A stretch of DNA of 64,000 nucleotides. Origin: Escherichia phage Sa157lw. The position numbers and the translations under genes are program-made. Below, piece by piece: positions 51,373-54,945 of this stretch (position 1 is its first letter; every line of letters starts with the position of its first letter). The stretch lies in the sequence record OK322699.1. One strand, given 5' to 3'. The notes beneath the pieces were generated by a model that worked only from the letters and a program-made list of their open reading frames with translations, was not told the DNA's origin and made no database searches.

Positions 51373-52071
51373 ATGGCCAGACCATTTGAAAAATATTTCT
51401 ACCATGAATCGTTGTTGAAATACATTCATGTCTTCAACGCTATCATGTCAGATTTAAAAGTCAAAACCGAACGTGGCTTGATGGAAATCCCGCTGCATAT
51501 GGCTATTGGCCGTCGCAATGACCTCAACAGGAACGTGCCAGCCAATATGCTGCCATTTGCGACTATGTCCTTCGGTCAATTCGAAATTAATAAACAAGTG
51601 ACCAAGTCGTATCATAATCAGATATCGACTGCAACTGCGCGGTCCAAACAACGAATTCCGATCATTATAGATTTTGAATATAACATCAGAACGAAGAAAC
51701 TGGTCGAAATGCTACAGGTGTTGGAACAAATTTATTCTGTGTTCACTCCTTCTATTGATTGTCAGATAAAAGACAACGATACGTTATCTCAAGATCAAAA
51801 CGTGAAGATTATGTTGACATCCCATACCATTTCCGATAACTGGGAAGGGGATGCCGCTGAATCACCCCATATAGATTGCACCTTTAATTTTCAATTACAT
51901 GGGCACATTTATGGCGAAGATTATTGGGTCGATGACGGCTCTGGCGGTGGTGATCCGAACGTTATCAAAGAGATAATTATTGAAATGTCTAATGATTTGA
52001 ACACGCCATGGTCGGAACTGCCTGAGTGGTTCCGAGTTGACAAAGATGGCATACATCATCCGGAGGATTGA
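51373..52071 (+). CDS. putative tail completion/sheath stabiliser protein (T4 gp15 position)
   Basis: Synteny only. Confidence 0.45.
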   Translation: MARPFEKYFYHESLLKYIHVFNAIMSDLKVKTERGLMEIPLHMAIGRRNDLNRNVPANMLPFATMSFGQFEINKQVTKSYHNQISTATARSKQRIPIIIDFEYNIRTKKLVEMLQVLEQIYSVFTPSIDCQIKDNDTLSQDQNVKIMLTSHTISDNWEGDAAESPHIDCTFNFQLHGHIYGEDYWVDDGSGGGDPNVIKEIIIEMSNDLNTPWSELPEWFRVDKDGIHHPED

Positions 52072-52754
52072 TCATGAGCAATATGTCAGAAAGGTTACTT
52101 GCGACGCTAGACGCGGTGACTGCCAGAGATGAAGTTGGTAAGGAGGCGATGGAAGCCGTCTCTCCACGTCCAGGTATTGACTTCGATGAAAAAACGGGCG
52201 AGTGGTTTGGTGAACGCCCAGAAGGTTATCAGCCGATTCCAGAACCTCCATCATTGGAAGATATCGCGTCCAAAGAATCCAAGGTTCCGGAGTTTGCGGA
52301 TACTGATGCCACAACAGATTACAAGCGGATACGCGATACAACATACGCCATGCAGGAAGCCACGATGTTCATGATGGGGCAAGCTGCTAAATTAGCTGCA
52401 TCTACCGAAGCCCCAAGAGCGTTTTCCGTGTTTCGTGAATTGGGCGAACTCATGCGCGGCCTGAACAAAGACCTGATGGAAAACCAAAAAACCATCAAAG
52501 CTGTGACAGGGGATAAAGAACCGCCGACTGATGACACAACCGTGGATGTTACCACTTCACCCGACGGGACCACAACAGTATCTGTTGGGAAGAAAGCGAG
52601 ATCTTCGCGCGATTTATTGAAAACGATCGAAGATGCACGCCGCCGCGCTGAAGAACGCGCCCAGGCAAAAGCCACCCAACAAACCGAAGATGAAATTATC
52701 GACGGTGAAACGGTTGACGTGAAGGAAGAAGACGATGGCGTATCAGAAGCGTGA
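52068..52754 (+). CDS. terminase small subunit (T4 gp16-like)
   Basis: ...TDYKRIRDTTYAMQEATMFMMGQAAKLAASTEAPRAFSVFRELGELM resembles T4 gp16 ...[47 protein letters not shown]; immediately upstream of large subunit. Confidence 0.7.
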   Translation: MIMSNMSERLLATLDAVTARDEVGKEAMEAVSPRPGIDFDEKTGEWFGERPEGYQPIPEPPSLEDIASKESKVPEFADTDATTDYKRIRDTTYAMQEATMFMMGQAAKLAASTEAPRAFSVFRELGELMRGLNKDLMENQKTIKAVTGDKEPPTDDTTVDVTTSPDGTTTVSVGKKARSSRDLLKTIEDARRRAEERAQAKATQQTEDEIIDGETVDVKEEDDGVSEA

Positions 52755-54945
52755 TATAGAATATGCTCCGATAAAAACGGGGTTTAAAATCGACGACGTG
52801 AAATTGCGTATGGACCAGACGTTCATGCGCAAGCCTTCTGTGCGCGCTCCACGAGTCGAGTTGATGCTAACAGATGAACAAGAAGACGAATTTGTTGAAT
52901 GTTCAATGGACGCGCATTACTTCGCTGCCAATTACTACAAGATAACGACAATCGATAAAGGCTTCATCCTTTTCGATATGCATGATTATCAGAAACAATT
53001 ATTTCACGATTTTCAAGATTATCGTTTCAATGCCGTTGTCCAGGCGCGTCAGTCCGGTAAATGCGTCCGTGGTGATACTCTTGTTTATGTCTATGATACA
53101 GTCAGTCAACAAGAGTTGCATCTCACCATAGAAGAGCTTCACAAGCGCTTCGAAGGACCGAACCATGCTGTGCCACTGAATACCATTGGCAACCACAATA
53201 AGTTTGTAGACAGCCGTTTCGGGAAACGATATTTTGTTGAGTCCGACACTGGCTGGGTTCCGGTTATTGCCGCTCATAAAACGAAAGAATACGCTGAATA
53301 CGTGGTCAGGACTGAAACCGGACGCACAATTCATGTCGCAGATGAGCACATGTTCTTCAATGAATATGGGCGCGAAGTATTTGCTAAAGACATGGAGGCC
53401 GGAGATGCCATAATGACCCAGGAGGGAATAGAATTCATCTCTGAGATCTGGGAGACTGGTGAGTACCACCACATGTATGACTTGCAAGTCAAGTCCAGCG
53501 ATCAACGTTATTACACGAATGGGTTCCTCAGCCATAATACCACGGTCGTGGCTGCGTTTCTTCTTTGGTATGCGATGTTCCACTCAGACAAAGAAATCGC
53601 GGTACTGGCAAACAAAGAGAAACAAGCGATTGAAATTCTTGACCGTATCAGGAAGGCGTATCAGGACCTCCCATTCTTCCTTCAGCAGGGTTGTGAGAAG
53701 TTTGGTTCTACACTGATAGAGTTTGAGAACGGCTCTAAGATATATGCTTATGCAACGTCTTCGGACTCTATTCGTGGTCGTTCTGTATCTCTCTTGTACG
53801 TGGACGAAGTCGCATTCATCGAAAATGACTTTGAATTTTGGGAATCAACATTCCCAGCGATCGCATCTGCTGATACTTCACGTTGTATTCTGACCAGTAC
53901 TCCGAAAGGCCAGCGAGGGTTGTTCTATGATATCGTCACCAAAGCAGACCCGCGCCATCCGCAATACAACGACTTCCATCTTACCGAAGTCCCTTGGTAC
54001 AAGGTTCCGGCGTACACCAAAGACCCTGATTGGGAAACCAAACAACGCGCTCGTCTGGGGGATGCCCGTTTTGACCAGGAATTTGGAATCAAGTTCCGTG
54101 GTTCTGTAGGTTCATTGATACCAGCCAAATGCTTGGATAAAATGACATCCAAGTTATATCGAGAGCCTAATGAGTTCACCAAAATTTACAAGGAATATGA
54201 CCCGCAACGCATCTACTTCGGGATCGCAGATACGGGGAAAGGTGTTGAAGGAGATTATTCGGTTCTGACAATTCTGGATATAACGGAATACCCGCATGTC
54301 ATAGCGGCCAAGTACAGGAACAATACAATACCTCCGATGATGTATGCATACACGATAGCTGATATGTGTACTGAATACGGGGAATGCCCTGTCCTTGTCG
54401 AGACGAATAACGACGTTGGTGGACAGGTTATCACGATCTTGTATCAAGAAATTGAGTATCCAGAGATCATATTCACGTCGACGGATAACAAAGGGACAGG
54501 GAAACGGATTGGTGGTCGTAAACCAGAGCCAGGCATTAACACCAACAGGAAAGTGCGATCTATTGGTTGTGCTAACCTGAAAGCGCTTATTGAGAAAGAA
54601 ATGTTGGTGATTGAAGATCAAGACACGATAGATGAACTCAGCACATTCGTGTTCCGTGGTGCGCGTTATGAAGCAGATGATGGATGTCACGACGACTGCG
54701 TTATGCCGTTGGTATTATATTCTTGGGCAGTTAAACAAGAATGGTTCAGTGATCTGACTTCTACCAGTATTTCTCAAGACATGAGAAATAGAATGTCTTC
54801 GACTGAGTCACAACAAGTATTCCCATTTGGTGGTTTAGTCGTGGGAGACACTCCATCTGGAACTGAGCATCTCCCTGGGTTCGGTGGTGTTCAAGTCTTC
54901 GACGAACGTTCAGGGATGACAATGGACGAGTGGTTTAAGAATTGA
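52735..54945 (+). CDS. terminase large subunit (T4 gp17-like), interrupted by a mini-intein
   Basis: Walker A reads ARQSGK|C...HN|TTVVAAFLLWYAMFH; without the insert it becomes ARQSGKTTVVA, matching T4 gp17 SRQLGKTTVVA. Confidence 0.9.
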   Translation: MAYQKRDIEYAPIKTGFKIDDVKLRMDQTFMRKPSVRAPRVELMLTDEQEDEFVECSMDAHYFAANYYKITTIDKGFILFDMHDYQKQLFHDFQDYRFNAVVQARQSGKCVRGDTLVYVYDTVSQQELHLTIEELHKRFEGPNHAVPLNTIGNHNKFVDSRFGKRYFVESDTGWVPVIAAHKTKEYAEYVVRTETGRTIHVADEHMFFNEYGREVFAKDMEAGDAIMTQEGIEFISEIWETGEYHHMYDLQVKSSDQRYYTNGFLSHNTTVVAAFLLWYAMFHSDKEIAVLANKEKQAIEILDRIRKAYQDLPFFLQQGCEKFGSTLIEFENGSKIYAYATSSDSIRGRSVSLLYVDEVAFIENDFEFWESTFPAIASADTSRCILTSTPKGQRGLFYDIVTKADPRHPQYNDFHLTEVPWYKVPAYTKDPDWETKQRARLGDARFDQEFGIKFRGSVGSLIPAKCLDKMTSKLYREPNEFTKIYKEYDPQRIYFGIADTGKGVEGDYSVLTILDITEYPHVIAAKYRNNTIPPMMYAYTIADMCTEYGECPVLVETNNDVGGQVITILYQEIEYPEIIFTSTDNKGTGKRIGGRKPEPGINTNRKVRSIGCANLKALIEKEMLVIEDQDTIDELSTFVFRGARYEADDGCHDDCVMPLVLYSWAVKQEWFSDLTSTSISQDMRNRMSSTESQQVFPFGGLVVGDTPSGTEHLPGFGGVQVFDERSGMTMDEWFKN
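53062..53538 (+). mobile_element. mini-intein (159 aa, no homing endonuclease domain) in the terminase P-loop
   Basis: Begins Cys (CVRGDTLVYV), block-B-like GRTIHVADEH, ends ...FLSHN with +1 Thr; length multiple of 3. Confidence 0.8.

Follow-up and report, generated by a model that had tools for sequence, protein, structure and literature searches.

The large terminase subunit (TerL) gene in the 64,000-nt stretch of Escherichia phage Sa157lw DNA analysed here (the window; GenBank OK322699.1) has its P-loop divided by an insert of 159 codons. This raises the questions of what the insert is, how a working packaging ATPase could be made from such a gene, and whether removal of the insert might itself be a point of control. 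We consider it highly probable (roughly 0.9) that positions 53062-53538 encode a class-1 mini-intein within the TerL Walker A motif, that the intein splices autocatalytically and constitutively, and that this endonuclease-less element descends from a mobile intein.

The terminase gene and its divided Walker A motif

The TerL precursor, of T4 gp17 type, is encoded by an open reading frame of 736 codons plus stop. The source of the gene is a Vi01-like Kuttervirus, with 99.5% nucleotide identity to the large terminase gene of Salmonella phage Vi01, and its start is overlapped for 20 nt by the end of the terminase small subunit (TerS) gene. The features of the locus are as follows.

52068-52754, plus strand: TerS gene (T4 gp16-like), an open reading frame annotated 'terminase small subunit' at the same position in phages Marshall, Mooltan, Cba120 and Magnus
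52735-54945, plus strand: intein-containing TerL precursor, 736 aa plus stop, identified by Terminase_6N (E = 3e-16), the identity to Vi01, and the match of its spliced form to T4 gp17 (E = 4.6e-76)
52735-53061, plus strand: N-extein, aa 1-109, whose last five residues, R-Q-S-G-K (53047-53061), make up the N-terminal half of Walker A
53062-53538, plus strand: class-1 mini-intein, 159 aa, precursor Cys110 to Asn268, identified by intein profiles, solved inteins, the predicted HINT fold, GenBank mat_peptide features named 'intein' and an identical nr entry
53539-54945, plus strand: C-extein, aa 269-736 plus stop, with the remaining ATPase domain and the RNaseH-like nuclease domain
53791-53808, plus strand: Walker B L-L-Y-V-D-E, within the C-extein
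53893-53910, plus strand: TSTPKG, within the C-extein, paired with TTTPNG of T4 gp17 in the alignment

The precursor matched the Pfam profile Terminase_6N over residues 269-460, and more weakly Terminase_6C over residues 498-629 (E = 6.9e-4; 20.1 bits, under the cutoff of 22.6). The spliced form aligned with T4 gp17 over residues 28-516, nuclease part included, and the protein has the gp17-type architecture, an ASCE ATPase bearing Walker A and B at the N-terminus and an RNaseH-like nuclease at the C-terminus. The insert splits Walker A between the invariant Lys109 and Thr269, and its excision gives ARQSGKTTVVAAF. The spliced motif aligned without gaps, RQSGKTTVVA in the query lying opposite RQLGKTTVVA in gp17, in keeping with an earlier proposal, in a preliminary description of this DNA, that removal of the insert restores a T4 gp17-like Walker A.

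Intein motifs, fold and selection

The residues and sequence blocks expected to take part in splicing were located at the following positions.

53062-53064, plus strand: Cys1 codon TGC, block A, conserved without exception in 24 family members and predicted to act as nucleophile in the N-S acyl shift
53338-53349, plus strand: block B A-D-E-H, intein residues 93-96 (Ala93 to His96), lying opposite SEEH in the alignment with the gp41-1 intein
53476-53490, plus strand: block F Y-D-L-Q-V with invariant Asp140 (53479-53481), matching the block F of solved inteins in alignments
53518-53538, plus strand: block G N-G-F-L-S-H-N, with His158 and Asn159 at 53533-53538 (CAT AAT; precursor residues 267-268)
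53539-53541, plus strand: Thr+1 codon ACC (Thr269), the first C-extein residue and predicted transesterification nucleophile, which doubles as the GK(T/S) Thr of Walker A

The preliminary description had placed a mini-intein in the P-loop at precursor residues 110-268, starting with Cys, ending in His-Asn and followed by Thr. The codons listed above agree with it at each of these points, the boundaries are exactly those annotated for phage Marshall (see below), and the identification itself was borne out by intein profiles, a HINT model and intein-less alleles. Penultimate His158 and terminal Asn159 are the predicted drivers of succinimide formation. Over 24 intein copies with identities down to 30%, C1, A-D-x-H, D140 and L-S-H-N were invariant, and the +1 position was occupied by Thr or Ser in every related copy at the TerL Walker A site. 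Cys1 is the sole Cys of the 159 residues. A class 3 intein (WCT triplet, no N-terminal nucleophile) was therefore ruled out, because Cys1 is present and, as the only Cys, leaves block F without one.

Block B differed from the TxxH that had been described: no TxxH occurs anywhere in the 159-aa intein (the neighbouring TIH is TxH only), and the block reads A-D-E-H. The conserved His96 is present, the usual Thr is replaced by Ala, and this A-D-x-H form (A93, D94, H96) was invariant across the 24 family members; gp41-1 has Ser where the family has Ala. In intein block B the His is conserved more strictly than the Thr, and for this reason ADEH is read as a variant, which would not disqualify the element as a class-1 intein. 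The replacement of the usual Thr could alter the kinetics of the first splicing step.

Among the profiles applied to the insert, TIGR01445 (intein_Nterm) scored 26.8 bits, above its cutoff of 24.5, Pfam Intein_splicing (PF14890) gave E = 3.9e-8 and 33.7 bits, below its curated cutoff, and TIGR01443 (intein_Cterm) matched weakly, also below cutoff. A profile of the intein family matched the solved inteins gp41-1 (E = 6.7e-9) and VidaL (E = 3e-8). The intein signal in the insert is thus far beyond chance. AlphaFold2 gave a pLDDT of 36 for the insert as a single sequence; a 24-sequence alignment was used instead and predicted a HINT fold (pLDDT 95.8, pTM 0.88). In a Foldseek search of the PDB, the top ∼40 matches to this model were all inteins (best E = 2.6e-10), gp41-1 giving a TM of 0.83 and an rmsd of 2.6 Å.

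We take gp41-1 and VidaL to be natural split inteins, of other host proteins, that were studied in fused form. They are the best matches to the window intein in both sequence and structure (PDB 6qaz, 6vgv), likewise consist of a compact, endonuclease-free HINT domain (128-145 aa), and share the block F/G pattern D...[ST]HN, although identity is only ∼20% and the model of the window intein contains a predicted helical insertion of ∼30 residues (residues ∼23-46) that is absent from gp41-1.

Neither Pfam nor NCBIfam revealed an endonuclease domain in the 159 residues, and the modelled structure consists of one compact domain rich in beta strands. From these two results and the length of only 159 aa, we conclude that the element is a mini-intein, as had been proposed. 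On the opposite strand, an open reading frame of 194 aa (52999-53583) spans the intein almost exactly and was considered as a hidden endonuclease or other gene; it was rejected, having no Pfam match and a frame that is reduced to 147, 126, 124, 147 and 71 codons in relatives.

A homologue search with the intein alone returned only two matches, and the full precursor was used as the query instead. Most of the intein was found within TerL in some 280 phage records, the majority of them from named isolates. Since a split P-loop cannot bind ATP, and yet these records carry the intein, splicing is indirectly supported. The dN/dS of the intein was ∼0.04 between the window and phage Magnus, with dS near saturation; for most pairs, saturation of synonymous sites made the ratio incalculable. 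The intein would be under purifying selection because a non-splicing copy kills an essential packaging ATPase.

The missing block B Thr, and the scores of the Pfam and TIGR01443 profiles under their cutoffs, might instead point to a HINT insertion that does not splice, such as a degenerate intein or a BIL domain that is retained or only cleaves. We regard this as extremely improbable, as the residues for full splicing (Cys1, the block B His, the block F Asp, His-Asn and Thr+1) are all invariant. In addition, the insert parts two essential Walker A residues, so that neither a retained nor a cleaved product could form the P-loop, and yet the phage records with the insert stem for the most part from named isolates. 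BIL domains typically occupy variable regions of non-conserved proteins, whereas here the host protein is interrupted where it is most conserved, in exact colinearity with intein-less alleles.

Known relatives, intein-less alleles and possible mobility

The element was already on record. GenBank entry KF669653 (phage Marshall, 2013) is annotated 'intein from Cys110 to Asn268', the TerL intein is described in two genome announcements of the same year (PMC3853055, PMC3868846), and it is likewise annotated in Maynard (KF669654), Mooltan (MH688040) and Magnus (NC_049462). The NCBI nr entry YP_008772116.1, named 'intein', is the identical 159-aa peptide. The Marshall and Maynard inteins are 100% identical to that of the window over the 159 aa, with the same Cys110-Asn268 limits, host gene and insertion site, while Klebsiella phage Magnus has an 84% identical copy, annotated alike. 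In most other records of the phage group, Vi01 included, the gene is called only 'terminase large subunit' and the intein is unmarked. The TerL intein, its boundaries and its host gene have thus been known since 2013, and as a discovery it is ordinary, because the same boundaries were in GenBank by that year.

The Lys/Thr junction has been termed a 'classic' P-loop intein site (Kelley et al. 2016, mBio, PMC5050341). In the mycobacteriophage TerL1-a 'classic P-loop' inteins of that study, splicing is needed to build the active site, as here. The TerL1-a host is a Terminase_1 protein, whereas the window host is a T4-type Terminase_6 protein, and the two are likened by insertion site; the sole Terminase_6 intein of the study (TerL6-f) is in the C-motif rather than the P-loop. 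Other TerL inteins were spliced efficiently in a reporter (PMC5050341), which was shown for several inteins but not for TerL1-a itself. In Campylobacter phages CP21 and vB_CcoM-IBB_35 (PMC3322345), the P-loop region of the T4-like TerL contains a relative of the intein, 33% identical across 73% of the query. Its site is three residues upstream (PRQ/C...SHN/SSKSTT), with Ser at +1, and its host gene is further interrupted by an intron and a homing endonuclease. A literature search found no splicing experiment on the TerL intein of the window, and no mention of it in the main ViI-like/Ackermannviridae papers or a 2024 review.

Comparison with intein-less homologues had been set beforehand as a possible refutation of the intein. 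The segment proved not to be a permanent domain: the junction RQSGK/TTVVAAF is present in TerL alleles that lack the intein and whose extein identities are 84.5%, 77% and 57%. Vibrio phage YC and P0015-P0019 (75-84.5% extein identity) are intein-less, and one of P0015-P0019 sits in a syntenic 118-kb phage contig. T4 gp17, Vibrio phage YC and P0015-P0019 are colinear through ...RQxGK/TT... with no gap.

Among Ackermannviridae-like TerLs, the presence of the intein is patchy; it is retained in what look like all enterobacterial Ackermannviridae genera. Within Kuttervirus, two intein alleles ∼21% apart occur in exteins only 1% apart. Between the window and Cba120, extein identity is 99.0% and intein identity 78.6%, with the intein divergence concentrated in residues ∼71-125, and between the window and Magnus the values are 88.7% and 84.3%. 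A gene for a MobE-like homing endonuclease lies directly upstream of TerL in SKML-39, Dickeya phage JA15 (F-LimIX), SenALZ1, SeTs-2 and Klebsiella phage Trex_ER12. The window has no such gene, TerS overlapping TerL directly. Larger inteins of 443-451 aa occur at the same TerL site, their extra ∼290 aa being low-complexity and rich in R/S/K/E; no endonuclease domain was found when these variants were searched as a possible ancestral mobile form.

These distributions bear on whether the mini-intein is still mobile, moving or being exchanged among Ackermannviridae by recombination or by co-conversion with the MobE-like HNH gene ('collaborative homing'). We consider this unlikely. It would explain the interleaving of intein-less alleles (84.5%, 77%) with intein-bearing ones (88-51% extein identity), the disagreement between the intein and extein histories in the Cba120 and Magnus comparisons, and the fact that some relatives have the HNH gene placed between TerS and TerL. 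However, the window lacks that gene, and the incongruence could reflect faster, less constrained evolution of intein loops, the divergence being concentrated in residues ∼71-125. Continued mobility is a reading of how the element evolved, and it does not conflict with its identity as a class-1 mini-intein.

Splicing and its possible control

The proposed splicing pathway is the canonical one for class-1 inteins and begins with folding of the 736-aa precursor. Cys1 would carry out an N-S acyl shift on the Lys109 carbonyl, assisted by the block B His, and the thioester would be attacked by Thr+1 to give a branched intermediate. Cyclisation of Asn159, aided by His158, would free the 159-aa intein, and an O-N shift would then produce a normal peptide bond, leaving TerL at 577 aa with its RQSGKTT P-loop restored. 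The ligated junction would read ...QSGK-TTVVAAFLLWYAMFHSDK. The anatomy of the insert, its predicted fold, the conserved catalytic residues, the colinearity with intein-less alleles and the earlier annotation are shown directly, whereas we infer both that the intein splices and that splicing is unregulated. Constitutive splicing of a selfish remnant is the default and most likely reading, although Novikova et al. (PMC4760082) argue that the clustering of inteins in P-loops points to selective retention, which counts against it.

The preliminary description had gone further in suggesting that splicing could gate DNA packaging. In such a scheme, TerL would remain inactive until a cue late in infection (redox, temperature, metal ions, DNA, or TerS/portal), which would time or gate packaging. 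The precursor must be ATPase-dead with its P-loop split, the intein is kept under purifying selection in apparently all enterobacterial Ackermannviridae genera, and P-loop inteins have been discussed as possibly retained as sensors (PMC4760082, PMC5050341). Nevertheless, we judge conditional splicing very unlikely, and the gating claim is speculation: the intein has no visible sensor feature and no sequence sign of conditional splicing, and its model shows a lone, compact HINT domain without additional modules. Known redox-regulated inteins use an internal disulfide trap, which the single Cys precludes here. Close intein-less alleles occur in phages that are syntenic and seem to package their DNA normally, and the intein is therefore dispensable for the packaging programme. 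The lethality of splicing failure fully accounts for the purifying selection, and where splicing was assayed in other TerL inteins, it was fast and needed no cue (PMC5050341).

A specific form of this idea starts from the unusual invariant A-D-x-H block B, which could slow the first step of splicing; the Ala-for-Thr replacement would hold back the P-loop intein until its release by a late cue or by TerS/portal assembly. To this, too, we attach very little credence. If conditional splicing were true, it would constitute a post-translational timer activating the packaging ATPase in Ackermannviridae.

Lys/Thr P-loop inteins, including those of terminases, are a textbook pattern, and the finding carries little weight as a discovery. 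Its practical value is in annotation, as most records of the Vi01-like phage group leave the intein unmarked; where the 159 aa are not removed, the length of mature TerL and phylogenies based on TerL are wrong. The observations on distribution, alleles, block B and the endonuclease gene leave the identity of the element unchanged. The patchy distribution, the two Kuttervirus alleles, A-D-x-H and the adjoining endonuclease gene could, however, feed a modest comparison, across a phage family, of the persistence and exchange of an endonuclease-less intein.

Host gene and insertion site

The precursor of the terminase large subunit (TerL) overlaps the terminase small subunit (TerS) directly in the window, and the residues at the insertion boundaries were assigned as follows:

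52068-52754: TerS
52735-54945, + strand: TerL precursor ORF, 736 aa
53062-53064, + strand: Cys, precursor residue 110 (TGC)
53533-53538, + strand: His-Asn, precursor residues 267-268
53539-53541, + strand: Thr, precursor residue 269

At the nucleotide level the TerL ORF shares 99.5% identity with its large terminase counterpart in Salmonella phage Vi01 and 97-99% with dozens more Kuttervirus (Ackermannviridae) phages. In Pfam searches of the 736-aa protein, Terminase_6N, the T4-type terminase ATPase domain (E = 3e-16), started only at residue 269, and Intein_splicing matched within residues 125-228. The preliminary description had placed a mini-intein in the Walker A P-loop at 53062-53538, and its coordinates and boundary residues were exact, with Cys110, His267-Asn268 and Thr269 at the expected codons. 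Excision of residues 110-268 in silico gave a 577-aa product, reading ...AVVQARQSGKTTVVAAFLLW..., that aligned with T4 gp17 over residues 28-516 (E = 4.6e-76) and was gapless at the junction (RQSGKTTVVA in spliced TerL, RQLGKTTVVA in T4 gp17). Removal of the intein thus restores a gp17-like Walker A, as had been proposed. The insertion point is the Lys/Thr boundary inside the Walker A GK(T/S); since the insertion lies between the Walker A Lys and Thr, this Thr would also serve as the +1 nucleophile.

Intein fold, catalytic residues and class

The excised 159 aa scored 26.8 bits with the NCBIfam intein N-terminal model (curated cutoff 24.5) and E = 3.9e-8 with Pfam Intein_splicing. Its closest solved relatives by sequence are inteins only (gp41-1, CDC21, the engineered Cat intein and VidaL), and a profile built from six family members strengthened the matches to solved inteins to E = 6.7e-9 and 3e-8. 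Structure prediction from the single sequence gave a pLDDT of only 36, so an alignment of 24 related inteins was used instead, giving a model with pLDDT 95.8 and pTM 0.88. The top ∼40 Foldseek PDB matches of this model are inteins without exception, including VidaL (E = 2.6e-10), gp41-1 (TM 0.83, 2.6 Å) and the Mtu RecA, Npu and Ssp DnaB and RadA inteins. The predicted fold is one compact, mainly beta domain, and no endonuclease family match to the 159-aa insert was found in Pfam, NCBIfam or the model. It is therefore a mini-intein, and the earlier claim that it lacks an endonuclease domain holds.

Among the 24 aligned copies, with identity down to 30%, the invariant positions are Cys1, Lys47, Gly64, Thr74, Ala93-Asp94-x-His96, Met138, Asp140, Thr152 and Leu-Ser-His-Asn (156-159), so that block A (Cys1), the His of block B, the Asp of block F and block G are all represented. 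Block B was located by alignment to gp41-1:

53338-53349, + strand: block B, ADEH

The same aligned position reads SEEH in gp41-1. A block-B-like TxxH had been described; block B indeed exists, but there is no TxxH anywhere in the intein sequence. Instead of the usual TxxH the family has A-D-x-H, whose Ala and Asp do not vary among the 24 members. The separate invariant Thr (Thr74) lies upstream of this block. A class 3 intein is excluded by the presence of Cys1 and the absence of Cys from block F, and the intein is therefore class 1. The anatomy, fold and conservation of the intein are established by these comparisons, and the class-1 mini-intein at 53062-53538 is genuine, had been delimited correctly and occupies the classic Lys/Thr site of the TerL P-loop.

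Distribution, variants and allele exchange

Comparison with homologues showed that the segment is not a conserved non-excised domain, as intein-less TerLs exist. The 583-aa TerL of Vibrio phage YC (Ackermannviridae, Campanilevirus) is missing exactly the Cys-to-Asn segment, and five metagenomic TerLs (P0015-P0019, 75-84.5% extein identity) have the junction RQSGK/TTVVAAFLLWYA; P0016, from a 118-kb contig, is part of the same gp13-gp14-gp15-TerS-TerL-sheath-tube-portal module. Most of the intein is present in ∼280 phage records, at the same site in all Ackermannviridae rows inspected, and remoter copies with the same junction occur in Vibrio phage VP-1, Salicola phage SCTP-2 and many metagenomic TerLs. 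Presence is patchy with respect to extein similarity, intein-less (84.5% and 77%) and intein-bearing (88-51%) proteins being interleaved.

Several relatives differ in size or position. Metagenomic TerLs P0082, P0087, P0110 and P0056 carry inteins of 443-451 aa at the same GK/T site, with no endonuclease domain detected by Pfam; their extra ∼290 aa are low-complexity and R/S/K/E/Q-rich, and follow block A but precede the conserved KF[VI]DS stretch, which is not the usual endonuclease position. In Campylobacter phage CP21 (L010:2494-3705) a related intein sits three residues upstream in the P-loop, with Ser at +1 (PRQ/C...SHN/SSKSTT), and the gene is split again further downstream; CP21 shows a second, independent insertion point in the same motif of a T4-like TerL. 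The annotated 'terminase large subunit' of SCTP-2, gene 267 (L011:2992-3885), begins mid P-loop intein, and CLDGETTV... follows the SLLY of Walker B, which looks like the beginning of a second intein at that motif. The TerL ORF of VP-1 (L008:2485-4701) has a 179-aa intein at the K/T site and a non-terminase C-terminal ∼270 aa that is GIY-YIG-type endonuclease-like (precomputed Pfam PF01541, P0084), with a separate 'terminase like family protein' downstream; a further interruption of this TerL, by an intron or a homing endonuclease gene, is likely. One further ORF was considered in the window:

52999-53583, - strand: antisense ORF, 194 aa, spanning the intein almost exactly

It had no Pfam match and its open frame is 147, 126, 124, 147 and 71 codons in relatives; it was rejected as a gene and is a chance open frame.

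Purifying selection is expected because a non-splicing copy would destroy an essential ATPase. Against Klebsiella phage Magnus, dN/dS was ∼0.04 for the intein and ∼0.03 for the extein, rough values as dS is near saturation. Two alleles of the intein occur in Kuttervirus, the window being of the Vi01 type. Its intein shares 78.6% identity with the Cba120 intein (L003:2501-2977), against 99.0% for the exteins; it is nearer to the Magnus intein (L004:2501-2977), at 84.3%, despite an extein identity of only 88.7%. Divergence is concentrated at intein residues ∼71-125. This pattern suggests that the intein segment recombined, or that constraint is locally relaxed. In several relatives TerS and TerL are separated by a free-standing gene for a MobE-like HNH homing endonuclease:

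L006:1309-2187: MobE-like gene of SKML-39, ∼330 bp upstream of the intein site
L005:1309-2187: MobE-like gene of Dickeya phage Ds25CZ, ∼330 bp upstream of the intein site

The gene, named F-LimIX in Dickeya phage JA15, is carried by Aglimvirinae, sporadically by Kuttervirus (SenALZ1, SeTs-2) and by Klebsiella phage Trex_ER12, and is absent from between TerS and TerL in the window. As a lead only, co-conversion via this endonuclease could mobilise the endonuclease-less mini-intein and explain the allele shuffling.

Splicing, packaging and prior annotation

Walker A essentiality is established for T4 gp17. Because of this, and because ∼280 phage records, the majority of them for named isolates, carry the intein, we infer that splicing itself takes place. 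Canonical class-1 splicing is the best-supported reading: Cys1 would perform an N-S acyl shift, the thioester would be attacked by Thr+1, Asn159 would cyclise with His158 assisting, and an O-N shift would leave a normal peptide bond. The products would be a 577-aa TerL with its P-loop intact and a free 18-kDa intein.

It had also been suggested that splicing could gate DNA packaging; we consider such conditional splicing very improbable. Known redox-regulated inteins use an internal disulfide trap; the window's intein has one Cys, so no such trap is possible. The modelled intein is also without an accessory domain, and closely related phages lack the intein wholly. The regulatory interpretation is unsupported.

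A literature search found no experiment on the window's intein, and the larger ViI-like/Ackermannviridae papers and a 2024 review leave it unmentioned. Terminases have been described as frequent hosts of inteins, and the Terminase_6 examples have been tabulated (Novikova et al., PMC4760082); the Lys/Thr junction is a 'classic' P-loop insertion, and efficient splicing in a reporter was shown for several other TerL inteins (Kelley et al., PMC5050341). GenBank KF669653 (phage Marshall, 2013) lists an 'intein-containing terminase large subunit' with the note 'intein from Cys110 to Asn268' and a mat_peptide 'intein' of the same residues. Maynard, Mooltan and Magnus are annotated in the same style, and the identical 159-aa peptide is in NCBI nr as 'intein [Salmonella phage Maynard/Marshall]'. 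Interruption of the large terminase by an intein is also stated in the genome announcements of both Marshall and Maynard (PMC3853055, PMC3868846). The intein is therefore already known at the annotation level, from database entries and publications on this group of phages.
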